From NCBI GenBank assembly GCA_024278175.1, contig JAJRTS010000006.1:41036-105035 (forward strand): a stretch of 64,000 nucleotides of DNA, given 5' to 3'. The notes below the pieces were generated by a model that made no database searches, was not told where the DNA came from, and saw only the letters and a list, made by a program, of their open reading frames with translations. Positions 1,947-63,988 of this stretch are shown one piece after another (position 1 is the stretch's first letter; every line of letters starts with the position of its first letter). Both the position numbers and the translations under genes were made by a program. The stretch comes from Gemmatimonadales bacterium (GTDB lineage Bacteria > Gemmatimonadota > Glassbacteria > GWA2-58-10).

Positions 1947-2153
1947 AGCGTGTTGAAAAATAATAATATCAGGAAAAAAAGGCTGTCAAGGGCCGTTGCT
2001 AAGCACAATGAATCAGCAACCATTTTTAAAATGTCAAAGCTGATAACAATGGATTGTTCAGTATGTGAGCATAGAAACGGCTTGTCTTGCCCTTGACAGC
2101 CGCACAAACGATAAATTTCATCTTGGGGCGTTGAGGCCTTCTTTCAACGCCCC
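1947..2153 (-). mobile_element. MITE-like repeat, copy 1 (inverted orientation relative to copies 2 and 3)
   Basis: Terminal hairpin ggggcgttgaggccttctttcaacgcccc at 2124-2152. Internal inverted subrepeats ctgtcaagggccgtt (1983-1997) and aacggcttgtcttgcccttgacag (2075-2098). The other end is agcgtgttgaaaaa at 1947. Homologous to 14672-14880 and 24179-24385. Confidence 0.6.
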
Positions 2154-2954: not shown

Positions 2955-3811
2955 TGGAACCGGCCAGGATGTTGCTGACCGGGGGAAGCGGTTTTCTGGG
3001 CAGCGTGCTGGCCGTGCTTGCCGCCGCTGCCGGTTACCGGGTCTGGGCCACCCACCTGAGTAACCCCGTCCCGGACCGCCGGGGAGTTACGCCCGTAAAA
3101 ATCAACCTGACCGATTATTCGGCGCTGACCGCGCTGGTACGCGAATCGGCCCCCTCGGTGGTGGTCCACACCGCTTACAGCATGAGCGATTCCGCAATCA
3201 ATGCCGGTTGCAGCGGGGAGTTGGCAGCGGCCTGCGCAGCGCTCGCAAGGCCGCCGTTTTTCCTGTATACTTCCACCGACCTTGTTTTCGATGGCCGCAG
3301 GGGGATGTACTCGGAGCGGGATGAGCCGGGGCCGGTTATCGAATACGGCCGTCAGAAGCTGGCGGCCGAGCGGGCGGTGAGCGCAGCCTTGCCGTCGGCG
3401 GCAATAGTGCGGCCCTCGCTGATCTACGACCTGCGGCGCCTGCCCCTGCACCTGGATTTCGCGCTCAAGGCGCAGCGCGGCGGCCGGACGTTCGAGTTTT
3501 TTGCCGATGAGTTCCGCTCTCCCGTGCACGTGGACGACCTGGCGGCGATGATTGTCGAACTCTGCGGCCGTCGCCTTGGCGGCCTCTGGCACGCCGGAGG
3601 CACCGACAGGGTGGACCGCTGGTGGTTCGGCACCCATCTGCTGCGGGCACTGGGTTACCCCGCAAGCATGGCCCGCCGTGGCAGCAGCGCCGCCAGCGCG
3701 AGCCGCCGTCCCGCGGACTGCTCGCTTTGCTCTGCCAAGGCGGCCGGGCAACTGGATACGGCCTTGCGCGGTGCGGTGGAAGTGCTGGGCAAATTCGATG
3801 GAGAAGGGTGA
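2954..3811 (+). CDS. NAD-dependent epimerase/dehydratase family protein (RmlD-like sugar nucleotide reductase)
   Basis: N-terminal Rossmann motif LLTGGSGFLGS and an SDR-extended fold. It is translationally coupled to the upstream methyltransferase. Confidence 0.7.
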   Translation: MEPARMLLTGGSGFLGSVLAVLAAAAGYRVWATHLSNPVPDRRGVTPVKINLTDYSALTALVRESAPSVVVHTAYSMSDSAINAGCSGELAAACAALARPPFFLYTSTDLVFDGRRGMYSERDEPGPVIEYGRQKLAAERAVSAALPSAAIVRPSLIYDLRRLPLHLDFALKAQRGGRTFEFFADEFRSPVHVDDLAAMIVELCGRRLGGLWHAGGTDRVDRWWFGTHLLRALGYPASMARRGSSAASASRRPADCSLCSAKAAGQLDTALRGAVEVLGKFDGEG

Positions 3812-3816
3812 CGCCT

Positions 3817-4458
3817 ATGGATTCGATGGAGCCGTTTGATTTTAAGCCGCTGGAGCGGGACAAGCAGGACGAGATTGTTCAAAGGATAGAGGCGCAGTTG
3901 GCCGGCGACGATCCTGAGGCCGTGCGCAGGGCGGTGTTGGGCCTGGACTGGCTGGAATCCGGCGAGGAGTTTGTGGAGCCCCTGCTCAGGCTGGCCGCCT
4001 CAGATAATGCGGAGCTGGCGAAAATAGCGCTGGAAGGGTTGGCCCGGATCGGCAGTACCCGGGCAGAGCAGCCGCTGGCCAGGCTGGTGCTGGAGCTGAT
4101 TAGTCACTCCCGACCGGGCCATGACGAGGTCCGCGCCGAGGCGATCCGCTGCCTGGGCAAGGTGGGCGGCCGGCAGTGTCCGCGTTTTCTTGAAGAGTTG
4201 ATTGCCAATCCGGCTCCGGCAAGCGATGGGGACCGGGAGGCGGCGGTGGAGGCGCTGGTTTCGCTGGCCGACAGGGGCGTGGAAGGGGTGGCGGACATTA
4301 TCAGGAAACTGGGCGATAAGGCCGCGGCAGAGCTGGCGAAGTCGCTGCAGGCCGCGCTTTGCGAGTTGAACATCCGGCAGTGGGACGAGAAAGGCTACAT
4401 CACGATCGAGGCTGAGCTTGAGGTCGATGGCGAGGGTGACTCCGGCCAGGATAATTGA
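3817..4458 (+). CDS. HEAT / PBS-lyase-like repeat protein
   Basis: Repeated AVRRAV-LG..G, A..AL..LARIG and AIRCLGKVG units (HEAT_2 / PBS lyase-like). The longer ORF from 3622 is a run-in from the previous gene; Met 3817 follows the upstream stop. Confidence 0.6.
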   Translation: MDSMEPFDFKPLERDKQDEIVQRIEAQLAGDDPEAVRRAVLGLDWLESGEEFVEPLLRLAASDNAELAKIALEGLARIGSTRAEQPLARLVLELISHSRPGHDEVRAEAIRCLGKVGGRQCPRFLEELIANPAPASDGDREAAVEALVSLADRGVEGVADIIRKLGDKAAAELAKSLQAALCELNIRQWDEKGYITIEAELEVDGEGDSGQDN

Positions 4459-4511: not shown

Positions 4512-5549
4512 GTGATTTTGCAGCGATTAACCGATTCGGGGAGGAAACTTTTGCCACAGAAAGAGCGGATGGACCTCAACGGCGCCAGTGTACTGATAAC
4601 CGGCGGCACCGGTTCGTTCGGCCAGCGCTGCTGCCGGGTGCTCACTGAGCGATTCGATCTCTCCCGGCTGATCGTGTTCAGCCGTGACGAGACCAAGCAG
4701 TTCGAAATGATGAGCTGGTTGCGCAACGACAAGGTCCGCTATGTTATCGGTGATGTGCGCGACAAGGCCCGGCTGCTGGAGGTCTCCGGCGGCGTGGACG
4801 TGATTATCCACGCAGCCGCGCTCAAACAGGTGCCCCAGGCAGAGTACAATCCATACGAGTACGTAAAGACCAATATCAACGGTACGCAGAACGTGATCGA
4901 CGTGGCCAGCACGGTAGGGGTCAAGCGCGTTATCACCACCAGCACGGACAAGGCTGTCAACCCGCTGAACCATTACGGAGCCACCAAGCTTTGCGCCGAT
5001 AAGCTGTTTATCTCCGCCAATTTCTACAAATCCGCGGGCGGCACGCTGTTCGCCTGCACGAGGATGGGCAACCTGATCGGCAGCCGGGGCAGTGTGATCC
5101 CGCTTTTCCGCAAGATGAGCACACAGGGCAAGGTCACAATCACCGACCCGGCCATGACCCGCTTCTACCTTACCCTGGACGAGGCGGTGGATTTCGTGCT
5201 GGGCAGGTTATGGGACATGCGCGGCGGCGAGATATTCGTTCCGCGCACCGGTACGATGAAGCTTACGGATCTTGTGGAAGCGGTCGCTCCGGGGGCGGAG
5301 GTCGAGGTGGTGGGGAGCAGGCCGGGGGAGAAACTGGACGAGGAACTGATCAGCCGTCACGAGGCACGCCAGACCGTATCGTTCGACGACTATTTCGCCG
5401 TGCTGCCCGACTACGCGGACGTGGCCGCGTATGCCTCGGCCACCGGCGGCGTCACGTTGCCGGAAGGGTTCGAGTACACCAGCACCAACGCAGACAGGTC
5501 GATCACGATTGAGCGGATGCGGGAGATTCTGCTGCGAGAGGGAATTTAG
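4512..5549 (+). CDS. UDP-N-acetylglucosamine 4,6-dehydratase (PseB/FlaA1/CapD-type polysaccharide biosynthesis protein)
   Basis: Contains VLITGGTGSFG, FSRDETKQFEM, DVRD and the TSTDKAVNPLNHYGATK catalytic YxxxK region typical of short PseB/FlaA1. The start is more likely the Met at 4569. Confidence 0.75.
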   Translation: MILQRLTDSGRKLLPQKERMDLNGASVLITGGTGSFGQRCCRVLTERFDLSRLIVFSRDETKQFEMMSWLRNDKVRYVIGDVRDKARLLEVSGGVDVIIHAAALKQVPQAEYNPYEYVKTNINGTQNVIDVASTVGVKRVITTSTDKAVNPLNHYGATKLCADKLFISANFYKSAGGTLFACTRMGNLIGSRGSVIPLFRKMSTQGKVTITDPAMTRFYLTLDEAVDFVLGRLWDMRGGEIFVPRTGTMKLTDLVEAVAPGAEVEVVGSRPGEKLDEELISRHEARQTVSFDDYFAVLPDYADVAAYASATGGVTLPEGFEYTSTNADRSITIERMREILLREGI

Positions 5550-5688: not shown

Positions 5689-6741
5689 ATGAGCGCAGAC
5701 AGGCGACCAGGCGTCCGGCCGCTGACGGTGCTGATGTCGGTTTATAACAGCGAGCGCTTTCTGGCCGAGTCCGTGGAAAGTATTCTGGGCCAGACTTTTA
5801 CGGATTTCGAGTTCGTGATTGTCGATGACGGCTCCAGCGACGGCAGCCGGGAGATAATCGAGCGTTACGCCGCTCTTGACAGCCGGATAGTGGTGCTGGC
5901 CAACGAGGAGAATATCGGCCTGACCCGCTCACTCAACCGTGGCCTGGATGTCGCCCGGGGCCACTACCTGGCCCGTCAGGACGCCGACGACGTCAGTCTG
6001 CCCCAGCGGCTGGCCAGACAGGTGGAATACCTGGACAGACATTTGTCGACAGGCCTGATCTGCAGTGGAATTGAGGTGATAGACTGCAACGGCCGGACCC
6101 TGGCAAGGAAACTCCCCCCGGAGTCCGACAGCGGGATCAAGGCCGGGCTGCTGATCAAGAACCATGTGATCTGGCACACCACCGTGATGGCTCGTCTGGC
6201 TGAGATTCACAAGGCGGGAGGATACGATCCGGCGGTTCGCTATGCGCAGGACTATGATCTGTGGTGGCGGATGGGGCGCTCTACCGGATTCGGTGGCCTG
6301 GGCGAGGCGCTGGTTCGCTGGCGCAGCAATCCGGAGGCAATATCGAGCCGTAGCCGCGAGGAGCAGTTGGAAAGTATGTTCGCCACCTCGCTACGTGCGG
6401 TCCGCGAAAGTCTGGACCCTGGCGAGGCTCTGGACGAAGACGCCTACCACAGGTTCTGGCGGGCATATCATGGCAGCGCCGGAGAGATACGCAGCGGAGA
6501 TATCGACCGTCTGGGACCGCTGTGGAAGCTGCTGGCTGAGCGCAAGGAAGAGTTGCCGGAAACTCTGAAAAATCTGGGAAAAACGGTGCAATACCTGCTT
6601 TCCGCCGGGAAATTCGCCGAGGGCTTCCGGCTTTTCGGTGTTATCAGCAGTACGCTGCCCGGTAGTCCACGCATGAGTGCGTTGGTGCCCGGTCTGTTAA
6701 AGGGGGCGGTTAAGGCCGTTTTACCGGGCGGATTGAAATAG
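5689..6741 (+). CDS. family 2 glycosyltransferase
   Basis: GT-A signature SVYNSERFLAESVESILGQTFTDFEFVIVDDGSSDGS and a DAD motif. Confidence 0.8.
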   Translation: MSADRRPGVRPLTVLMSVYNSERFLAESVESILGQTFTDFEFVIVDDGSSDGSREIIERYAALDSRIVVLANEENIGLTRSLNRGLDVARGHYLARQDADDVSLPQRLARQVEYLDRHLSTGLICSGIEVIDCNGRTLARKLPPESDSGIKAGLLIKNHVIWHTTVMARLAEIHKAGGYDPAVRYAQDYDLWWRMGRSTGFGGLGEALVRWRSNPEAISSRSREEQLESMFATSLRAVRESLDPGEALDEDAYHRFWRAYHGSAGEIRSGDIDRLGPLWKLLAERKEELPETLKNLGKTVQYLLSAGKFAEGFRLFGVISSTLPGSPRMSALVPGLLKGAVKAVLPGGLK

Positions 6742-12587: not shown

Positions 12588-12731
12588 ATTATGATGATAT
12601 CGTAAAAAGTCCGCTTTGCCGATGGCAAAGTAGAAAGTTTCAGATACGAGGCGTGTAGATTTTGAGGAGCGAAGCGTACTTGCGCCTGCGCTGCAGTGAC
12701 GAGATAATCTTACGCAACGAAGTAGATGGAA
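12588..12731. repeat. ~140-bp conserved intergenic element, copy A (homolog at 63849-63988)
   Basis: Direct alignment to the window end over about 140 bp: tgatgatWtcRtaaaaagtc, ttgccNNNggcaaagta, gtactt, tgacgagata, cgcaacgaagtagatgga. Confidence 0.6.
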
Positions 12732-13103
12732 GCCATCAATTAATAGAAGTTATTTCAAAACCTCTTAGTAATTGGCTGAAGACAATCGAGTTAGTGGAAT
12801 CGATATTGGTCGATACCCCGTGAAGCTCAGGGCTTGTTTTTTGTGGTGGGGCGGGGTCAGTCCCGGGCCGCATGTCTGAGCCACAGCAAGGGTAGCGTGT
12901 AGTTGTCCCGGATCCCACCGGAGCTGCCGGAAAAAACATTGTCCGGCGTGCGATTCGCTTCCAGCGGGCCAAGCACACGGGAGTGGAGTTTTGCCGATGG
13001 CACACCGCCCGGATTAAAAAAACCACAAGTTTGTGCGAGTTCGGCCCGGAAAAGGCTTTTGCTCTACTTTTGGCCTCAAAAGTAGAAGTACTCTCTCGCT
13101 TTT

Positions 13104-14114
13104 TTGCATAACTTGGGTTTTGAAATAACCTCTAATTCTTCAATGGGTAGCGAGATGCGGAAAAACTTTGCGATCATCGGTGTCGCCGGCTATATCGCGC
13201 CGAAGCACCTGCAGGCGATCAAGCGAACCGGCAACAAGCTGGTGGCGGCGGTTGACCCCCACGACAGCGTGGGCGTGCTGGACAGCTATTTCGATGACGT
13301 GAGTTTCTTCACCGAATTCGAGCGTTTTGACCGGCACATCGAAAAGCAGCGCCGCCAGTCGCCGGACAACCGGATCGACTACGTGAGCATCTGTTCGCCC
13401 AACCATCTCCACGACGCCCATATCCGGTTCGCGCTGCGGGTGGGCGCTCATGCCATCTGTGAGAAGCCGGTGGTGCTCAACCCCTGGAATTGCGATGCCC
13501 TGCTGGAGCTGGAGCAGGAATCCGGCGGCAGGATTTACACGATCCTCCAACTCCGTCTGCATCCTGAGCTTATCGCCATGCGCAAGGAACTCCGGCAGGC
13601 CAGCCAGGGGCGCAGGCACGATGTAGAGCTGACCTACATCACTCCGCGCGGGCTGTGGTATCAGTACTCATGGAAAGGCCAGCGGGAGAAATCAGGAGGC
13701 GTGGCCACCAATATCGGCATTCACATGTTCGACCTGCTGATCTGGATGTTCGGCCCCGTTCAGGGCTGCGAGGTTCACTACGAGGACCCGCGCAGGGTCA
13801 CCGGGCTGCTGGAGCTGGAGCGGGCGAAGGTTAAATGGTTTCTCTCCGTGGATGGCAGAGACCTTCCCGATGGGCCGGACAGCGGCGCGAACGAATCATA
13901 CAGGCTGATCTCGATAGACGGGCGAGAGATCGAGTTCTCGCCCGGTTTCAAGGACCTGCATACCCTTAGTTATCAGGAACTGCTCTCCGGCGGCGGCTTC
14001 GGTATCGAGCAGGCGCGGCCGTCGATTGAACTGTGCAGCACGATCAGAAACAGCCGGGCCACCGGGTTGACCGCCGACTCCCATACGTTGGCCGCTAGGG
14101 CCGCCGGGCGCTGA
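13104..14114 (+). CDS. Gfo/Idh/MocA family oxidoreductase (WbpB/WlbA-like UDP-sugar 3-dehydrogenase)
   Basis: N-terminal Rossmann FAIIGVAGYIAPKHLQAIK and the C-terminal alpha/beta domain of the GFO_IDH_MocA family. Probable start is the Met at 13155. Confidence 0.7.
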   Translation: MHNLGFEITSNSSMGSEMRKNFAIIGVAGYIAPKHLQAIKRTGNKLVAAVDPHDSVGVLDSYFDDVSFFTEFERFDRHIEKQRRQSPDNRIDYVSICSPNHLHDAHIRFALRVGAHAICEKPVVLNPWNCDALLELEQESGGRIYTILQLRLHPELIAMRKELRQASQGRRHDVELTYITPRGLWYQYSWKGQREKSGGVATNIGIHMFDLLIWMFGPVQGCEVHYEDPRRVTGLLELERAKVKWFLSVDGRDLPDGPDSGANESYRLISIDGREIEFSPGFKDLHTLSYQELLSGGGFGIEQARPSIELCSTIRNSRATGLTADSHTLAARAAGR

Positions 14115-14125
14115 AGTGGCCGGTG

Positions 14126-14656
14126 TTATTTCTTGAAGAACGTTTCGTAGGACCCACCGGTGTTCACCCGGATATGCGCCGAGTGCCCCTGCGTTTTCAA
14201 GGCGTCGACCAGGGGAATGGGCGGAAACGAGCTGGTGAGCATGATGGATTCCCCCTCCTCAAGTTCTTTCACGCCGCTGATAACCATGTTAAGCGGATGA
14301 GTTCCGCTCTCGAGCATTTTGTCCGCATCGATAACCTGCTTGACTGTGCACTGGCCCACCCAGAGCGGCTCCTGCCCGGTCTCCCGGGCCGTTGGCTCCT
14401 GCCCGGCGCTCCCGCCCGTCATTTCCGGCAATCCGGCCTCGCGGCGAAGCCTGCCGACCAGCTCAACAACCGGTATGTCCGCCATTTCCGCCGCTTTTTC
14501 CAGGGTGGCTATTTTAGCCACGGTTTTGCGCAGCAGGGGGTTCTGGATTTTCTTGAACACCGGCGCGATTTCTATCAGTACGCTTTCCAGGTCGGGAAAG
14601 TTTTTCAGCAGATCAGCCACCGTGGTCTGCGGGTTAATATCGTTTGTCTCTGCCAT
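14126..14656 (-). CDS. DUF1858 domain protein (hybrid-cluster-protein-associated redox domain)
   Basis: N-terminal ADLLKNFPDLESVL...KTVAKIATLEKAAEMADIPV matches the DUF1858 pattern. A GGAGG RBS lies upstream of the Met at 14656. Partner of the adjacent DUF438 gene. Confidence 0.55.
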   Translation of the reverse strand: MAETNDINPQTTVADLLKNFPDLESVLIEIAPVFKKIQNPLLRKTVAKIATLEKAAEMADIPVVELVGRLRREAGLPEMTGGSAGQEPTARETGQEPLWVGQCTVKQVIDADKMLESGTHPLNMVISGVKELEEGESIMLTSSFPPIPLVDALKTQGHSAHIRVNTGGSYETFFKK

Positions 14657-14671
14657 TACTGCCTCCTGAGT

Positions 14672-14880
14672 GGGGCGTTGAAATAAAACTCTCAACGCCC
14701 TCGAATGAAATATTCTGCCTGGTTAGTTGTCAAGGGCAAAGCAAGCCGTTCCTTTTAAGAAAACTGCTACTCATGTTATTCCAAGTAAGTTACATTGCTT
14801 ACGCCGGCTCTCGGCCAGCAACAGCGAGGAACGGCCCTTGACAACCCAACTCCCATACTTTTGTTATTTTTCAACACGCT
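14672..14880 (+). mobile_element. MITE-like repeat, copy 2, with 7-bp direct repeat CCTGAGT on both flanks
   Basis: Terminal hairpin ggggcgttgaaataaaactctcaacgccc. Internal subrepeats gttgtcaagggcaaagcaagccgtt and aacggcccttgacaac. The end is tttttcaacacgct. CCTGAGT directly abuts both ends. Confidence 0.65.
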
Positions 14881-14889
14881 CCTGAGTAA

Positions 14890-16125
14890 TCAGTCGTTAT
14901 AGCTCAGCAGCCTCTGCTCGCCTTCCAGCTTTCGCAGCGGCGCGATATCCTGCGTCACTTCCAGGGTGCCCAGATACTCGCCCTGTTCGTCGCGCATCGC
15001 AAAGTAGCGGATATGGACGAACATGCCCTGGTGCTGGATCCAGAACTCGGCCACGTCCTGCCGCCCGGCGCGGAAGTCGGAGACGATCCGTTCCACCGTG
15101 TCCACGCTCTTGGGCGGATGGCAGTGCTGCACCTTGCGCCCGATAATCGCCTTGCTGCGCGGGAATACTCTCGAACCGCCCTCGCTGAAAAACGCTACCC
15201 GGTCGTCGGCGTCGACAAAAGTAACGTCCAGCGGCAATGTTTTGAGCATCGCGTCAATCTGCTGGAACGTGAGCGCGCCGGTGCCGAACCGGATCGCGTC
15301 GTTTTCGCCCAGCGAGGCCTCGTGGGACGGTTTGCTCTCCCGTGGAGGGCTGTATTTATTACCGGGCTCCACCAGACACCAGCCGTAGTCCGGGCTTTGG
15401 GTCCAGATTTCTCCCCAGTCGTCGGCGGTCAGGGTCTGCATCGCCATCGGGAACAGAATCTCGGTTTCCTTGAAAATCATCTCCTCCACGGCGGCCAGGG
15501 CCGGTTCCACCACGGCCTCTCCCGCCACTTTCCAGTCTCCGGCCACGGCGTCGCTTTGCTCAAGGGCCTCGCCCAGCACCTTGAGCAACTCCCGCACCTC
15601 GTCGTCCTTGCCCCACATCACCTTGCTGGGACCTGACACTCCATGTCTCTCCAGGAAACTGAACAGCAGGTTTTCCTTGCGTCGGTAGTGCTTCTCCACG
15701 TCCATCAACTCGTTGAAAGCAGCGCGAAGGGCTGTAAGCTGCTTTTCGGGATGAGCGCTGTCGTCCAGGCTGTTTATTTCCTGCAAAGCAGCGCGCATTT
15801 TCGTAACCACCTCGCTCAAGGCGGTGTTTTCCCTGCGCATCGTGTCCACCGGATGGCCCTCGATAATATCCGGGCTGACCGACTCGACCAGCAGGTCGCG
15901 GAGCACCTCGCTGTGAAGGTCGCACATGGACTGGACTTCCTCGATCGGCATGCCCTCGGCGATCAGCGACTGCTCCATCGCGGCGATTTCGCTACTGTCG
16001 GTCTGCTTGACTATCTCGGTCAACTGCTTGCGCACCTCGTCCGGATCGGCGCCCTGGTGTAGGCGCTTGATGATCTTCTTCAGTGTTTCGATCCTGTTGG
16101 CTCTGTTATCGATAAACTCGCTCAT
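14890..16125 (-). CDS. DUF438 / hemerythrin HHE cation-binding / PAS domain protein
   Basis: N-terminal DUF438-like region, central hemerythrin-like H..E motifs, and a C-terminal PAS-like fold. DUF438 is known to co-occur with DUF1858. Confidence 0.6.
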   Translation of the reverse strand: MSEFIDNRANRIETLKKIIKRLHQGADPDEVRKQLTEIVKQTDSSEIAAMEQSLIAEGMPIEEVQSMCDLHSEVLRDLLVESVSPDIIEGHPVDTMRRENTALSEVVTKMRAALQEINSLDDSAHPEKQLTALRAAFNELMDVEKHYRRKENLLFSFLERHGVSGPSKVMWGKDDEVRELLKVLGEALEQSDAVAGDWKVAGEAVVEPALAAVEEMIFKETEILFPMAMQTLTADDWGEIWTQSPDYGWCLVEPGNKYSPPRESKPSHEASLGENDAIRFGTGALTFQQIDAMLKTLPLDVTFVDADDRVAFFSEGGSRVFPRSKAIIGRKVQHCHPPKSVDTVERIVSDFRAGRQDVAEFWIQHQGMFVHIRYFAMRDEQGEYLGTLEVTQDIAPLRKLEGEQRLLSYND

Positions 16126-24135: not shown

Positions 24136-24164
24136 TTGACTTGCCGGTGGGGCCGGTCTATATT
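24136..24164 (+). promoter_or_regulatory. near-consensus sigma70-type promoter TTGACT-N17-TATATT
   Basis: TTGACT at 24136-24141, a 17-nt spacer, and TATATT at 24159-24164. It points toward surE, through MITE copy 3. Confidence 0.5.
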
Positions 24165-24178
24165 CCGCTCTGTTTTAA

Positions 24179-24385
24179 GGGGGCGCTCTCAATAAAACGT
24201 TCAACGCCCTTAAATTAAATATTTCATCCGGGCAAGTTGTCAAGGGCAAGGCAAGCCGTTTTTTACCGGTTCTGCTATTCGTTTTATTTCAAGCAGTTAG
24301 ATTGCTCCCGCCGGCTTTCGGTAGGCATAATCATGAACGGCCCTTGACAACCCCAACATCCATACTTTCGTTTTTTTCAACACGC
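24179..24385 (+). mobile_element. MITE-like repeat, copy 3, flanked by direct repeat TGTTTTA
   Basis: gttgtcaagggcaaggcaagccgtt at 24236-24260, aacggcccttgacaac at 24335-24350, and the end ttttttcaacacgct. TGTTTTA lies immediately before and after the element. Confidence 0.65.
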
Positions 24386-24426
24386 TTGTTTTACCTGTCA
24401 GGCAACCTGATCGCGAAGGGCGCTAA

Positions 24427-26581: not shown

Positions 26582-26659
26582 CGGGGCGTAGCGCAGCCCG
26601 GTTAGCGCGCGTGCTTCGGGAGCACGAGGTCGGGAGTTCAAATCTCCCCGCCCCGACCA
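26582..26659 (+). tRNA. tRNA-Pro (anticodon CGG), CCA encoded
   Basis: Cloverleaf: acceptor cggggcg/cgccccg, D-arm gcgc..gcgc, anticodon stem cgtgc/gcacg with loop ttCGGga, T-arm gggag-ttcaaat-ctccc, discriminator A plus CCA. Confidence 0.85.
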
Positions 26660-45156: not shown

Positions 45157-45254
45157 CGCCTTGGAGGGCGCCCGAAGAAGTTAGCAAAAAAGAGCCGGCC
45201 GCGGAATTCCGCGGCCGGCTTTCTATTATCGCCTTGGATTATTTAAACTCTGCG

Positions 45255-50387: not shown

Positions 50388-50469
50388 TCGACTCCTGCGG
50401 AAGTGCGTTGGTTGCACGCTCACCAGGTGGTCCGGCGGCGTTCGCATAAAGGAGAAATAATATAGTCGA

Positions 50470-50565
50470 ATCGGTGAATTTGACAAGGCTCAGGGGGCAG
50501 TTGAAGAAAGCTCTCAACGGCCCTGAAAGAAATATTTTCCCGGTTGGCCACCCAGGGGCAAGGCC
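50470..50565. mobile_element. degenerate partial copy of the MITE-like repeat
   Basis: gggggcagttgaagaaagctctcaacggccctgaaagaaatattttcc resembles the terminal hairpin plus the adjacent segment of copies 2 and 3. Confidence 0.35.
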
Positions 50566-54572: not shown

Positions 54573-56807
54573 ATGAGAAGTGGCCTGCTCTCTTTTATGT
54601 TGGCGGTAATTGTGTCGCTATCCTGGGCCGATAGCTCCAGCGCTTTTGTGACTGAGCTTCGCCAGCGCGGATATGCCCTGATTCCCACGCCCCAGCGGGT
54701 GGAGCTTGAGAACGGCGATATAACACTGGGCCCGGGCTGGGCGATTGAGGCCGAGGGCCGTGCCCGGGGAGATATCGCCGTGCGGCGGTTGACAGAGGGT
54801 GCACGGGAGCTGCACGGGCTGGTTTTAGCGGGTAAGGGCGAGGGCAAAATCGTGCTGAAAATAGCCGCTGGGACCGTTAAAGGCACGGATGATCCCGAGC
54901 TGCTTAAGCAGGCCTACAGGCTGACAGCTACGCCGGGCAGGGTGGAAATAACGGGTAACGATGCGCCGGGGCTGTTTTATGGCGTCCAGAGTTTTTTGCA
55001 GCTCCTGCGCCGCAATCCTGACGGCAGTCTCAGTCTGCCGGCGGGCACTATCACCGACTGGCCCGACCTTCAGCTTCGCTTCGCCCACTGGGACACCAAG
55101 CACCACCAGAAAAGAATCGAAACGCTGAAGCGGCTTATCGACTGGCTGGCTTATTTCAAGGTCAACATGATCGGTTTCGAGATGGAGGATAAGTACGAGT
55201 ACCCCAGCCACCCGATTATTGGCGCGCCGGGCGCATACACCAAAGAGCAGATGCAGGAGCTTACCCGCTACGCCCTGGAGCGCCACGTTCAGCTTGTCCC
55301 GGTTATCCAGAGTCCGGCGCACATGGCTTACGTGCTCAAGCACGAAGAGTTCGCCCACCTTCGCGCCGACGGCTGCAACTACCAGATCTGCATGTGTGAC
55401 CCCGAGGCGATCCAACTCATTTTCGACATGTTCGACGACATGATCGAGGCCACGCCGGGAGTGGAGTATTTCCACGTCTCCACCGACGAGGTCTATTTCG
55501 CCGGAACCTGCGACAAGTGCGAGCGGGAGTACAACGAAGAGAACCGCAGCCAGGCCTGGATCGATTTCGTGCTTAAGGCCCACGAGTTTCTTGCCTCCCG
55601 TGGCCGGACGATGCTGGCCTGGGTGGAGTACCCGGTGCTGGCCGAGCATATCCTCCAGTTGCCGCCGGATTTGATCGACGGGGTGATGGGCGGCGACCAG
55701 GATTTCCTCGATATGGAAAAAGCTGTCGGGATCAGGCAACTGGCCTACAGCAGCACCCAGGGCTCGGAGTTCCTGTTCCCCAACCATCTGCCTACAACTT
55801 ACCGTGGCCGCTATACGCGGGGCAGGGTGGAGGGCAACGTGCAAACCGTGCGCAGGGGACTGGCCATGGGGGCCAACCCGATTGGCTCGTTCGCGGCCGC
55901 CTGGGACGACTCCGGCCTGCATGAGGAAACTTTCTGGCTCGGCTGGGCCTCTGTAACCCAGTACGCCTGGACCCACCTGACACCCACTCCGGAGCAGACC
56001 ACGGCCGATTTCATGGATGTGTTTTATGGACCCGGCCATCAGGATATGCTGGAGGTCTACAACCTGCTTGAGCAGGGCGCGCGCTTTTTCGAGGATGGCT
56101 GGGAATCGGTTATCAGCTCCGAGCGCAATCCGGGCTACGGGAACAGTGATGGTAAGGGTATCCATACCGAGCGCTACGACCAGTTGCTGGTGCCGCCCTC
56201 GCTCCCCGATCCTGCCGACCTCGCTATCGAATCCGTGTTCAGCACCAGGTATGCCGGAAGGGTTGAGCAGGCCCGCGCCCTGCTGCCGGAGAGCGACAGG
56301 CTGATCGCTCTGCTGAACCGCAACATGACCAGCCTGTCTCGCAACCGCTACAACCAGGAAGTATATTTGAGTATCGCCCAGCTTGAACGACACTTTATCG
56401 AAACTCTGCTTGAGTTGGACGAGACCGAGCGTTCGCTGATCTCGGCCTCCGAAGCCGCGGCGAAAGGGAATCACGGCCGGGCGGTGAACTATATGGTGGA
56501 GGCCAACAACTCCGTGGCCGCTCTGCTGGAGAGGCGCGAATGGATGTGGAACAACCTGACGGAGGTCTGGGAAAAAAGCCGCTACGAGAAGGGTCGGAGC
56601 GTGGACGGGCGGAAGTTCGTGCACGTGCTTGACGATCTCAAGGACCACTGGGCCGACCGCCGCCGTGGCCTGGACTATATGATGGCCCCGTTCCAGCGCA
56701 TGCAACTGCCCGCCTGGCGCGGCGCTCTGGTGAAAATTATCGACTCCTACGCCGCCGCCCACGGCGTGCCCGTGCGGGGGCTGGCTGTTCCCCGGCTGGA
56801 GGACTGA
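54573..56807 (+). CDS. GH20-like glycoside hydrolase (beta-N-acetylhexosaminidase-type catalytic domain), secreted, paralog 1
   Basis: Signal peptide, an N-terminal GH20b-like domain, and a TIM barrel beginning ITDWPDLQLRFAHWD. Shares the same 744-aa length and domain order with the next gene. Confidence 0.5.
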   Translation: MRSGLLSFMLAVIVSLSWADSSSAFVTELRQRGYALIPTPQRVELENGDITLGPGWAIEAEGRARGDIAVRRLTEGARELHGLVLAGKGEGKIVLKIAAGTVKGTDDPELLKQAYRLTATPGRVEITGNDAPGLFYGVQSFLQLLRRNPDGSLSLPAGTITDWPDLQLRFAHWDTKHHQKRIETLKRLIDWLAYFKVNMIGFEMEDKYEYPSHPIIGAPGAYTKEQMQELTRYALERHVQLVPVIQSPAHMAYVLKHEEFAHLRADGCNYQICMCDPEAIQLIFDMFDDMIEATPGVEYFHVSTDEVYFAGTCDKCEREYNEENRSQAWIDFVLKAHEFLASRGRTMLAWVEYPVLAEHILQLPPDLIDGVMGGDQDFLDMEKAVGIRQLAYSSTQGSEFLFPNHLPTTYRGRYTRGRVEGNVQTVRRGLAMGANPIGSFAAAWDDSGLHEETFWLGWASVTQYAWTHLTPTPEQTTADFMDVFYGPGHQDMLEVYNLLEQGARFFEDGWESVISSERNPGYGNSDGKGIHTERYDQLLVPPSLPDPADLAIESVFSTRYAGRVEQARALLPESDRLIALLNRNMTSLSRNRYNQEVYLSIAQLERHFIETLLELDETERSLISASEAAAKGNHGRAVNYMVEANNSVAALLERREWMWNNLTEVWEKSRYEKGRSVDGRKFVHVLDDLKDHWADRRRGLDYMMAPFQRMQLPAWRGALVKIIDSYAAAHGVPVRGLAVPRLED

Positions 56808-56866: not shown

Positions 56867-59101
56867 ATGATAACCAGGGTCAATATTCTGTTGAGTGCTC
56901 TGCTGCTTTGCCTTGCGCTGCCGGCTCAGGCCGCAATCACCATGACTCCCACCGACCTTCGCCTGCGGGGCTACAGCCTGGTGCCATCACCCCAGAAAGT
57001 CGAACTCAGGCAGGGCGATGTGGTGATCGACCAGAGCTGGGCGGTAGAGACTGAAGCCGATGGCCTGGCAGCCGGCTGGCTGGAAGAATGGGCGGAAGAC
57101 CTTCACGGGTTAACGCTGGCAGGCACCGGCGATGGCAAAATAACTCTGGCGGTGGACAAGCGGGCCGTGACCGGTGTGGACGATCCGGGTCGTAGCGCAC
57201 AGGCGTACAAGCTGGAAATTTCCGCGAGCCGGGTTACGATTACCGGCAACACTGAGCAGGGGCTGTTCTACGGCGTCCAGAGTTTTTTGCAGCTCCTGCG
57301 CCGTAAGCCCGATGGCCGCCTGTGCGTACCGGCGGGCAGCATTATCGACTGGCCGTCGCTGGAGCTGCGCTTTGTCCACTGGGACACCAAGCACCACCAG
57401 AAACGCCCCGAGACCCTGCGCCTGATAATCGACTGGCTGGCCTTTTTCAAGGTCAACGCGATCGGTTTCGAGATGGAGGACAAGTACGAGTTTCCCAGCC
57501 ATCCGCTGGCAGGTGCGCCGGGCGCTTATACCAAGGAGGAGCTGCAGGCTCTTACCCGCTACGCCCTGAAACGTCATATCCAGCTTGTGCCCCAGATCCA
57601 GGCTCCGGCCCATATGAACTGGCTGCTCAAGTACAAGCAGTACGAGCATCTCAGGGCGGACAATTCCAACTACCAGATGTGCATGTGCGACGAAGAGGGG
57701 ATGGACGTTATCCGTGACCTCTACCAGGACATGATAGACGCCACGCCGGGAGTGAAGTACTTCCACGCCTCCACCGATGAGATTTATTACGCCGGTATCT
57801 GCGACAAGTGCGGCAGGCCGTACAACGACGAGAACCGCAGTCTGTACTGGGTGGAGTACGCAAGCTGGATGCACCGCTGGCTGGCCGAGCGCGGCCGAAC
57901 GATGCTCTGCTGGGTTGAGTATCCCCTGCTGCCGGAGCATATCAGGATGCTGCCCTCGGGCATTATCGACGCGATCACCAACGGCAGCAAGGCCCCTGTC
58001 TGGATCGATGAGATGAACAAGGCGGGGATTCCCCAACTGGCCTATTCCAGCATGCAGGGCTCGGAGTTACTGTTTCCCAACCTGTTCCCGACCACCTACC
58101 GCGGCCGTCGCACCGAGGGCAGGCTGAAGGACGCTTCCACCACGGTACCGCGCGTGCTGGATAAGGGGGCGAACCTGTTGGGTACTTTCTGCGCCAGCTG
58201 GGACGATTCCGGTCTTCACGAGGAAGCGTTCTGGCTTGGCTGGGTGGTTGTCAGCCAGTACGGCTGGAACTATGCCTCGCCCGGTGTGGACCAGGCGGTG
58301 GCGGACTTTATGGATGTGTTCTACGGCCCGGACGCGGGTGAGATGGTGGAAGCCTACAAGCTGCTCGAGCAGGGTGCGCGCTTTTTCGAGGACGGCTGGG
58401 ACCGGGTAAAAAGCAAAGAGCGCGGACCCACCTACGGCAGCAGTGTAGGGCCGTTTCCTTACGACCGCCAGGACCAGACCCTGTCCATGCCCCAGTTGCC
58501 TGAGGGCGAAACCATCCGCGTTACACCCACGTTCGCGGAAAAATACCGCGAGCGGATCGACGGGGCCTGGGAGCAGAAAAGGCTCAACGACTCTCTGGTG
58601 GCCATGCTGATGCGCAACCTGGGCCGGGTGGAGCGCAACCGCTACAACCTGGAAGTGCTGCTCTCGCTGGCGCGCCTGGAGCGCTATTTCATGGATATGC
58701 TTACCACCATGGAGCAGGCGGAAAGCTCCATGGTCGCGGCCTCGGCGGCGGACGCGGAGGGCAAGCACGCCGCGGCCGTGGGACAGCTGGTGGTGGCCTC
58801 GAACAGCGTGGCGTCCCTGCTGGAGCAGGAGAGTGCGATGTGGAGCAACCTGGTCACCGTCTGGGAGAAGAGCCGTTATCCCAAGAACCGCAGCGTGGAT
58901 GGCCGCGAGTTCTTCCATGTGCTGGACGACGTGAAGGACCATTTCGCTGACCGCCGCAAGGGGCTGGACTACATGATGGCCCCGTTCCAGCGGATGGACA
59001 TCCCCGGCTGGAGAGAGCGTCTGGTGAGCTTTATCGACTCCTATGCCGCCGCCCACGGTGTGCCCGTGCAGGGGCTGGCCGTTCCCCGGCTGGAGGACTA
59101 A
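56867..59101 (+). CDS. GH20-like glycoside hydrolase, paralog 2 (tandem duplicate)
   Basis: Co-linear with 54573-56807 (GLFYGVQSFLQLLRR, FKVN.IGFEMEDKYE, identical C-terminal HGVPV.GLAVPRLED). Confidence 0.5.
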   Translation: MITRVNILLSALLLCLALPAQAAITMTPTDLRLRGYSLVPSPQKVELRQGDVVIDQSWAVETEADGLAAGWLEEWAEDLHGLTLAGTGDGKITLAVDKRAVTGVDDPGRSAQAYKLEISASRVTITGNTEQGLFYGVQSFLQLLRRKPDGRLCVPAGSIIDWPSLELRFVHWDTKHHQKRPETLRLIIDWLAFFKVNAIGFEMEDKYEFPSHPLAGAPGAYTKEELQALTRYALKRHIQLVPQIQAPAHMNWLLKYKQYEHLRADNSNYQMCMCDEEGMDVIRDLYQDMIDATPGVKYFHASTDEIYYAGICDKCGRPYNDENRSLYWVEYASWMHRWLAERGRTMLCWVEYPLLPEHIRMLPSGIIDAITNGSKAPVWIDEMNKAGIPQLAYSSMQGSELLFPNLFPTTYRGRRTEGRLKDASTTVPRVLDKGANLLGTFCASWDDSGLHEEAFWLGWVVVSQYGWNYASPGVDQAVADFMDVFYGPDAGEMVEAYKLLEQGARFFEDGWDRVKSKERGPTYGSSVGPFPYDRQDQTLSMPQLPEGETIRVTPTFAEKYRERIDGAWEQKRLNDSLVAMLMRNLGRVERNRYNLEVLLSLARLERYFMDMLTTMEQAESSMVAASAADAEGKHAAAVGQLVVASNSVASLLEQESAMWSNLVTVWEKSRYPKNRSVDGREFFHVLDDVKDHFADRRKGLDYMMAPFQRMDIPGWRERLVSFIDSYAAAHGVPVQGLAVPRLED

Positions 59102-63654: not shown

Positions 63655-63848
63655 AGGGGCAATTCCACTGCTCTTGACAGCGAAAAAGATAATAAATTTG
63701 ATTTCAGGTCCGTTGAATGTTTTTCAGGCGGCCAACGGGTCATTCGTTACCCGTCGGCGGTCCAAAATACTTGACATCAGGTACATGGAAGGACTATTTG
63801 GATAAGAGGCATATTGCGCTCTCAATCGGAAAATTCAGCGGCCACTCA

Positions 63849-63988
63849 CGATGATTTCATAAAAAGTCATATTTGCCAACGGCAAAGTAAAAAGCTCCGG
63901 ATGCAAGGCGCGAAAATATCGAGCAATAGAGGTGTACTTAAAGGCACTCCGCAACTGACGAGATATGTAGCGCAACGAAGTAGATGGA
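63849..63988. repeat. ~140-bp conserved intergenic element, copy B (homolog of 12588-12731); may continue beyond the window end
   Basis: Aligned with copy A over its full length, including ttgccaacggcaaagta and cgcaacgaagtagatgga. Confidence 0.6.

Follow-up and report, generated by a model that had tools for sequence, protein, structure and literature searches.

The stretch of DNA analyzed here (the window) comprises 64,000 nt of a Gemmatimonadales bacterium (GCA_024278175.1, contig JAJRTS010000006.1, positions 41,036-105,035 of the forward strand) and contains three full copies of a dispersed intergenic repeat, one left-end fragment and one possible relic. Copy 1 (1947-2153, minus strand) lies between a purQ-like GATase_5 gene (1160-1942) and a methyltransferase gene (~2190-2954). 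Copy 2, on which we focus (14672-14880, plus strand), separates a DUF1858 gene (14126-14656) from a DUF438/hemerythrin/PAS gene (14890-16125), both on the minus strand. Copy 3 (24178-24386, plus strand) lies in the 5' leader of surE, inserted ~8 nt past the -10 box of a native sigma-70-like promoter (TTGACT-17-TATATT, 24136-24164, plus strand) that is outside the element. The fragment (50492-50564, plus strand) retains the hairpin, the linker and the start of the left arm and lies upstream of a gene with an ATG near 50390, and the possible relic (63669-63733, minus strand) is decayed and gives a marginal match to profile positions ~8-73. The hairpin end of the repeat adjoins the start of the downstream gene in copies 1 and 2 and in the fragment, and copy 3 is reversed.

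A first-pass annotation had reported three full copies and a degenerate fragment. A profile HMM built only from the copies of another genome, a Glassbacteria MAG, recovers them all, and their positions hold to within one base, the start of copy 3 moving from 24179 to 24178 (AGGGGGCG). The nhmmer matches span 1946-2158 on the minus strand (E 2e-34), 14668-14883 (E 2e-26) and 24176-24388 (E 4e-20) for copies 1 to 3, and the fragment matches profile positions 5-77 (E 2e-5). For the relic the match at 63669-63725 on the minus strand reaches an E value of 1.6e-3 with the profile of MAG copies and 1.4e-4 with a window-type profile. In the window, patterns for the conserved blocks are found 3-4 times, whereas shuffles predict 0.00-0.33 occurrences and none of them equals the observed count. 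The right-arm 16-mer gave five matches with up to three mismatches (1.25 expected; five reached in 1 of 100 shuffles), and its three exact matches are the three full copies. Overall identity between the window copies is 53-70%, with the conserved blocks nearly identical, and a variable center of ~75-85 nt, which in copy 1 is unalignable with the centers of copies 2 and 3. The copies are ~206-209 bp long, AT-richer than the host and without coding capacity, all overlapping ORFs being spurious. The only Rfam match in the window at the gathering threshold is a tRNA gene (26582-26656), with none for the element, and three loci with copies gave no relevant Rfam match at E ≤0.1.

Architecture and distribution of the element

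The left end of the element is formed by (A)GGGGCGTTGAAA, a loop and TCAACGCCCC, in which the left terminal repeat and an inverted copy of itself make up a 10-bp hairpin. After a linker of ~25 nt comes the left arm, G(C/T)TGTCAAGGGCAARRCAAGCCGTTTCC, then a center of ~75 nt that varies between subfamilies, the right arm GGAAACGGCCCTTGACA(G/A)CC, a spacer of ~20 nt and the right terminal repeat TTTCAACACGCT(T). In copy 2 the terminal hairpin occupies 14672-14701 on the plus strand, where GGGGCGTTGA and its inverted copy TCAACGCCC fold with 10 pairs (14672-14681 with 14692-14701). The left internal arm GTTGTCAAGGGCAAAGCAAGCCGTT (14726-14750, plus strand) pairs with the right internal arm AACGGCCCTTGACAAC (14830-14845, plus strand), the most conserved block of the family, and the right terminal repeat TTTTTCAACACGCT (14867-14880, plus strand) is identical in all three full window copies. 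Read directly from copy 2, the right terminus repeats the left one imperfectly in inverted orientation, with 9 of 12 bases matching; in the 48-copy consensus together with the window copies, A-GGGGCG-TTGAAA and the reverse complement A-AGCGTG-TTGAAA agree at ~10 of 13 bases. The terminal motifs can be written as (A)GGGGCGTTGAA at one end and TTCAACACGCT at the other.

The terminal inverted repeats, hairpin, internal inverted pair and conserved second terminus of the first-pass description are all present in the window copies. Its inverted repeats and internal pair stand as described, and its hairpin is better described as the left terminal repeat plus an inverted copy of itself. Because the terminal motif occurs three times and the internal arms are strongly conserved, the element is more than a plain pair of terminal repeats. 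Single-strand folding is strong (z = -3.8 for copy 2, and -5.3). The hairpin of copy 2 also stands alone in the MAG at L028 1953-1986 and L029 2769-2806, and another solo hairpin lies in L048.

A scan of species-representative genomes with the left-arm pattern gave at least 63 loci, and all matches listed come from one Candidatus Glassbacteria MAG (JAFGTO01). Within these loci (406 kb) nhmmer found at least 54 full-length copies of ~206 bp and at least ~20 partial ones. Among the MAG copies listed, mean pairwise identity is 79% and nearest-neighbor identity 88%, reaching 97.6%, and the whole element is conserved, center included. Conservation in the MAG alignment drops to background exactly outside two junctions, between ...YTAR-A and GGGGCG on the left and between CGCT-T and YTAR... 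on the right. The window organism is related to this MAG: locus L022 is syntenic with 37.9-45.1 kb of the window at ~70% identity, the nearest named homologues of the window proteins are from Glassbacteria or Gemmatimonadota, and GC content is 59-60% in both. Exact-protein look-ups of window genes gave no recorded match. A metagenome scan with the arm of the window subfamily retrieved a single locus (L067), whose element is 80% identical to copy 3. Three matches on viral contigs were due to chance, none being a copy, and a plasmid search found no copies.

Many MAG copies are rearranged. Copies lie head to tail in L037 and probably also in L023, L017 and L006, and one copy is nested within another in L026. 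Other inserts interrupt copies in L052 (163 bp), L022 and L039, the last two sharing the same ~116-bp insert at the same position of the element, and L035 has an internally deleted form. These structural variants are of the kinds typical of active repeats. About eight copies lie at contig ends, and the element provides a marker of strain-level variation and of assembly breaks in Glassbacteria MAGs. The ~116-bp insert (L022 197-306, L039 3311-3420 and L015 near 421) is itself a third small repeat that starts with TTGAACAGCGAGCGC and has a hairpin CCCCGCAG..CTGCGGGG. In L022 and L039 it is nested just past the MITE hairpin in copies of different subfamilies, and its start recurs close to the right end of another copy, in L015.

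The MAG copies are intergenic and lie in both orientations: co-directional genes flank 15 copies one way round and 7 the other, divergent genes flank 12, and convergent genes 6. In 31 of 45 cases, against 14, it is the right end that points toward a gene start, a mild excess that rests on crude ORF calls.

Insertion sites and target duplications

Relatives of the window organism were reached through homologues of the DUF438 gene beside copy 2, which gave four related contigs. In three contigs with 75-83% nucleotide identity (L065, L066 and L071) the copy-2 site is empty and the DUF438-DUF1858 spacer is 15-17 nt long; the gap in the window is 233 nt. Removal of copy 2 and one of its flanking CCTGAGT repeats from the window sequence leaves TGA-17 nt-ATG and preserves the ribosome-binding site. 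For copy 3, empty sites are found in L066 (CCGCTC-TGATTTA-CTG) and L074 (CGGCTC-TGTTTTT-CTG), where the 7-mer is present once, in each case with one mismatch to TGTTTTA, and the filled site in the window reads ...GCTC-TGTTTTA-element-TGTTTTA-CCTG.... As the 7-mer is single in these relatives and double in the window, it is duplicated target rather than element sequence, and the empty orthologous sites argue for a non-autonomous DNA transposon.

A closer relative at 94% identity (L072, GCA_054474455.1) has the orthologue of copy 3 at 6493-6701, again with the 7-mer twice, the right one a base shorter, and has two further copies absent from the window (3786-3993 and a truncated one at 5244-5328). 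Around the truncated copy, synteny between L072 5244-5456 and the window (~23137) stops ~130 bp from the element; from the sequence comparison, this break may reflect a repeat-associated rearrangement. In L064, also of the 94% relative, the copy-2 site holds a different insert of ~150 bp (3206-3355) with a hairpin AGCGTGCCCGCAAAAACACGCT first and TTTTTCAACACTCT at its end. This insert is unique in the data examined and is not alignable with copy 2, so that homology between the two was rejected; it could be a distant family member that inserted independently, or a replacement.

The first-pass annotation had assigned the repeat 7-bp target duplications, which hold for copy 2, copy 3 and one L072 copy and not for the family as a whole. 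CCTGAGT brackets copy 2 at 14665-14671 and 14881-14887, TGTTTTA brackets copy 3 at 24171-24177 and 24387-24393, and a perfect TCTTAAA flanks L072 3791-3992, a copy whose right end lacks ACGCT. In all three the 7-mers abut GGGGCG, and the chance of a 7-mer match in a fixed register is ~6e-5. Copy 1 has no clean duplication: ACGCTGGA occurs on both sides, and the flanking repeat is ambiguous because the right-hand ACGCTGGA overlaps the element's own terminal ACGCT.

Covariation between the flanks of 49 MAG copies is confined to four position pairs, from -5 to -2 on the left and from +2 to +5 on the right, with 33, 33, 38 and 33 matches (permutation p <5e-5, 0.01, 0.03 and <5e-5), and the adjoining positions do not (-6/+1, p = 0.08; -1/+6, p = 0.6). 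The flanking 4-mers are identical in 17 of the 49, a number that none of 2000 shuffles reached, and differ by one base in 13 more. The left site is YTAR in 27 of 49 copies, against a background of 2.8 YTAR sites per kb, and the target sites TTAG, CTAA, CTAG, TTAA or ATAG conform to NTAR, most of them to YTAR. The duplicated TAG/TAA provides the stop codon for the upstream ORF in at least seven copies. Repeats in the MAG exceed shuffled expectation at 4-6 bp, with none above 6 bp. The duplication in the MAG is thus 4 bp of NTAR; a duplication of 6 or 7 bp was rejected there, since no repeat reaches 7 bp and the outer positions do not covary. Conversely, a 4-bp duplication was rejected for copies 2 and 3 and L072 3791-3992, each of which would need three extra chance matches. 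The flanks of the metagenomic element in L067 (CTAG-A on the left and T-CCAG on the right) follow the MAG pattern and are compatible with 4 bp. The left junction is alike everywhere (NN-YTAR-like-A before GGGGCG), with TTAG-A, TTAA-A and CTAG-A in L072. A single transposase family does not normally change its duplication length in this manner, and the difference between 4 and 7 bp may reflect different resident transposases.

The insertions at DUF438-DUF1858 and in the surE leader probably change expression. Copy 2 would separate two genes that are tightly coupled in the relatives. The surE promoter lies upstream of copy 3 and is conserved in relatives without the element, so copy 3 should be transcribed within the surE leader, to which it would add a structured segment of 209 nt that, to judge from the fold of copy 2, would form a long stem. 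Outward promoters from internal TTGACA motifs had been suggested; a simple sigma-70 scan finds one in copy 1 and does not bear them out as a general feature. A simple terminator scan found no terminators in the element. With both scans negative except for copy 1, a general promoter or terminator role was rejected. The reported presence of copies in both orientations relative to genes is borne out in the window and in the MAG, and since the neighbors are unrelated genes, the argument made earlier against a dedicated leader RNA stands. The element accounts for several long AT-rich intergenic stretches of the window that could otherwise be mistaken for regulatory RNAs.

Mobilization, affiliation and alternative explanations

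A Pfam scan of 30 ORFs in the window revealed ordinary domains or none and no transposase domain, in agreement with the first-pass statement that a cognate transposase is absent from the window. Gene tables of the syntenic relatives list no transposase, and none with matching termini was found in the ~560 kb examined, which take in the MAG loci (406 kb); insertion sequences are usually lost from MAG assemblies. Additional terminal-repeat motifs outside the known copies were limited to chance matches with one mismatch. A scan of all six frames for Y..R...E......K recovered one IS4-family fragment, in L046, and this truncated gene (L046 2560-3429, minus strand; NF033592, E 1.5e-52) is the sole transposase found. 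It was rejected as the partner because the terminal repeat adjoining it differs (CCGGATTATTCAC). An inverted-repeat family with CCGGATTATTCAC directly at a YTAR duplication lies beside the MITE at L046 2232-2375, L054 1-84 and L022 140-152.

Conservation is highest in the internal arms of the element and lower at its termini; in most MITEs it is the other way round. Arms and termini are the only parts common to MAG and window copies. Across 50 MAG copies the right arm, which lay outside the search pattern that retrieved them, has 0.26 singletons per column compared with 0.6-1.2 in the other blocks, and the arms persist between genomes whose genes are only ~70% identical. This raises the question of whether the element has been co-opted by its hosts, with arms and stem kept for a host function as a 5' leader, a protein-binding palindrome or a promoter. 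Such a role, which would supplement mobility, is also favored by the position of copy 3 within the surE leader, by the excess of MAG right ends toward gene starts and by a few compensatory stem changes (e.g. CG to UA at alignment columns 64/185). Against it, the element of copy 3 and its L072 orthologue are only 78% identical (164/210) and their flanking genes 93-94%, with four changes in the 26 nt of the left arm in L072; orthologous copies thus diverge ~3x faster than their flanks, which speaks against constraint in place. Mutations in the hairpin break pairs rather than compensate, stem pairing is found in 89.6% of cells against 88.5% in shuffles, and RNA-structure covariation was rejected as weak, most of it being due to pairs that do not vary and to the divergent window copies. 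The element has no general sigma-70 promoter or terminator match, and the same loci work in relatives without it. Host co-option is in our judgment unlikely, and because of the copy 3/L072 pair we read the conservation of arms and termini as a requirement in cis over a host function. The divergence of this pair is patchy: only 11 of 25 linker positions match, the L072 linker resembles the MAG consensus, and a 13-nt patch that matches copy 2 in L072 differs in copy 3 of the window. Such a mosaic suggests, at the level of sequence, conversion among element copies.

The GC-rich hairpin at one end, the long hairpin-forming body and the solo hairpins scattered in the MAG are what would be expected of a REP/REPIN-like or IS200/IS605-type element mobilized in single-stranded form by a tyrosine HUH transposase (RAYT/TnpA) that acts on the hairpin. 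Elements of this type are not known to make a target duplication and insert beside a fixed tetra- or pentanucleotide, however, whereas variable 4-bp and 7-bp duplications and true inverted termini are found here and no Y1 transposase was seen in the sequences searched, which leaves this explanation highly improbable. We give as little credence to an IS630/Tc1-mariner-type MITE that duplicates TA only. TA is indeed the best-conserved part of the MAG flanks, and many sites are CTAG, but the bases on both sides of TA covary between left and right (p <5e-5), so that at least 4 bp are duplicated, and the window lineage has the 7-bp CCTGAGT and TGTTTTA, the former without any TA; a TA-only duplication was rejected on these grounds. 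A conserved, immobile family of cis-regulatory leaders or small-RNA genes would account for the stable RNA fold and for the hairpin lying immediately before a gene start in three of the four window copies, fragment included. Yet the repeat is absent from orthologous sites in relatives, occurs in both orientations and in nested and tandem copies, has target duplications and matches no Rfam family, and we consider an immobile family the least credible of the explanations weighed here.

The repeat is dispersed in many copies, is present or absent at orthologous sites and duplicates its target. As the first-pass annotation had proposed a non-autonomous transposable element, its view is supported by these three observations, and we conclude that the repeat is very probably a non-autonomous DNA transposon (MITE) of ~206 bp that has spread in Glassbacteria genomes. 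The family is new but belongs to a well-known kind, the prokaryotic MITE, and does not represent a new kind of system. Apart from an identified partner, it has the structural features by which a review defines MITEs (PMC10969869), a review that also describes the Correia element of 204 bp and documents its IHF site and promoters. Our family resembles prokaryotic MITEs such as Correia/NEMIS of Neisseria in its size, its lack of coding sequence, its inverted termini and short target duplication, its tens to hundreds of intergenic copies, the stem-loop formed if transcribed, and its location near promoters and gene ends. Its sequence is unrelated, its termini are ~12 nt with the left one doubled into a hairpin, and the internal arms are best conserved; Correia, by comparison, has terminal repeats of 26 bp and duplicates TA. 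With the REP/BIME/REPIN elements mobilized by RAYT it shares high-copy intergenic palindromic units and hairpin-forming doublets. REPINs accompany a RAYT gene and are not known to have target duplications or such terminal inverted repeats, whereas target duplications are demonstrated for our element and a RAYT gene was not seen in the sequences searched. Membership in the Correia, REP/REPIN and IS630-type groups was rejected after their defining features had been tested, as the family lacks them.

IS5 makes a 4-bp duplication of YTAR (PMC5009759). The IS5 family and its MITE derivatives include ISNme1/ATR and BrickBuilt/MITE464 of P. gingivalis (PMC4596501), and GAGACCTTTGCAAAA is among the published terminal repeats of the family (PMC4596501). 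The 4-bp, YTAR-preferring duplication of the MAG copies and their non-coding, AT-rich sites are alike, and more loosely a GAG...TTG.AAAA pattern is common to GAGACCTTTGCAAAA and GAGGGGCGTTGAAAA of our element. From the 4-bp YTAR duplications we infer that the mobilizer would be a DDE-type, IS5-like transposase. Unlike the IS5 group, window-lineage copies have 7-bp duplications, and no IS5-family transposase with these termini was found in the sequences searched. The IS5 group is not known to make 7-bp duplications.

For the MITE, we envisage that a transposase encoded elsewhere in the genome would recognize GGGGCGTTGAA-type termini and direct insertion into AT-rich, NTAR-like intergenic targets, often the TAG/TAA stop codon of the upstream gene, and that repair of the staggered target cut would leave the short direct repeat. 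Mobilization would probably depend in cis on the terminal motifs and on both internal arms, which would explain why arms and termini are conserved across genera and the center is not. Both the discrepancy between 4 and 7 bp and the strong conservation of the arms bear on how the element is recognized. On another reading, to which we assign a small probability, a single MITE family moves with two duplication lengths according to genus (4 bp NTAR or 7 bp) and keeps an internal palindrome of 19-27 nt near-invariant between genera as its termini drift; this could point to a new transposase that recognizes the arms or hairpin instead of the termini, to two unrelated transposases that act on the one non-autonomous substrate, or to arms with a host function. 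Our literature search found no paper mentioning both Glassbacteria and "transposable," and the present data document an abundant mobile element in this uncultured lineage, Candidatus Glassbacteria (also Glassiibacteriota).

Other repeats and features of the window

A second dispersed repeat of ~140 bp occurs at 12593-12730 and 63850-63988 of the window, its two copies 73% identical. It starts with GTAAAAAGTC..TTGCC.A.GGCAAAGTA and ends with GCGCAACGAAGTAGATGGA, bears no relation to the MITE and matches no Rfam family. In the comparison with the 94% relative L064 (4897-4908), ~80 bp (12652-12732) and ~390 bp (12743-13133) of the window are missing from the relative, between the GT4 glycosyltransferase and GFO_IDH genes, as lineage-specific insertions or deletions.

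Between convergent or adjacent genes at 45186-45227 lies a near-perfect palindrome of 42 bp (AAAAAAGAGCCGGCCGCGGAATTCCGCGGCCGGCTTTCTATT), with overlapping arms of 25 nt that are 88% complementary, which probably acts as a terminator in both directions; the equivalent stretch of the syntenic MAG locus L022 is occupied by a MITE copy instead. Two tandem paralogous GH20 (beta-hexosaminidase-like) genes, at 54573-56807 and 56867-59101, share ~70-78% DNA identity.
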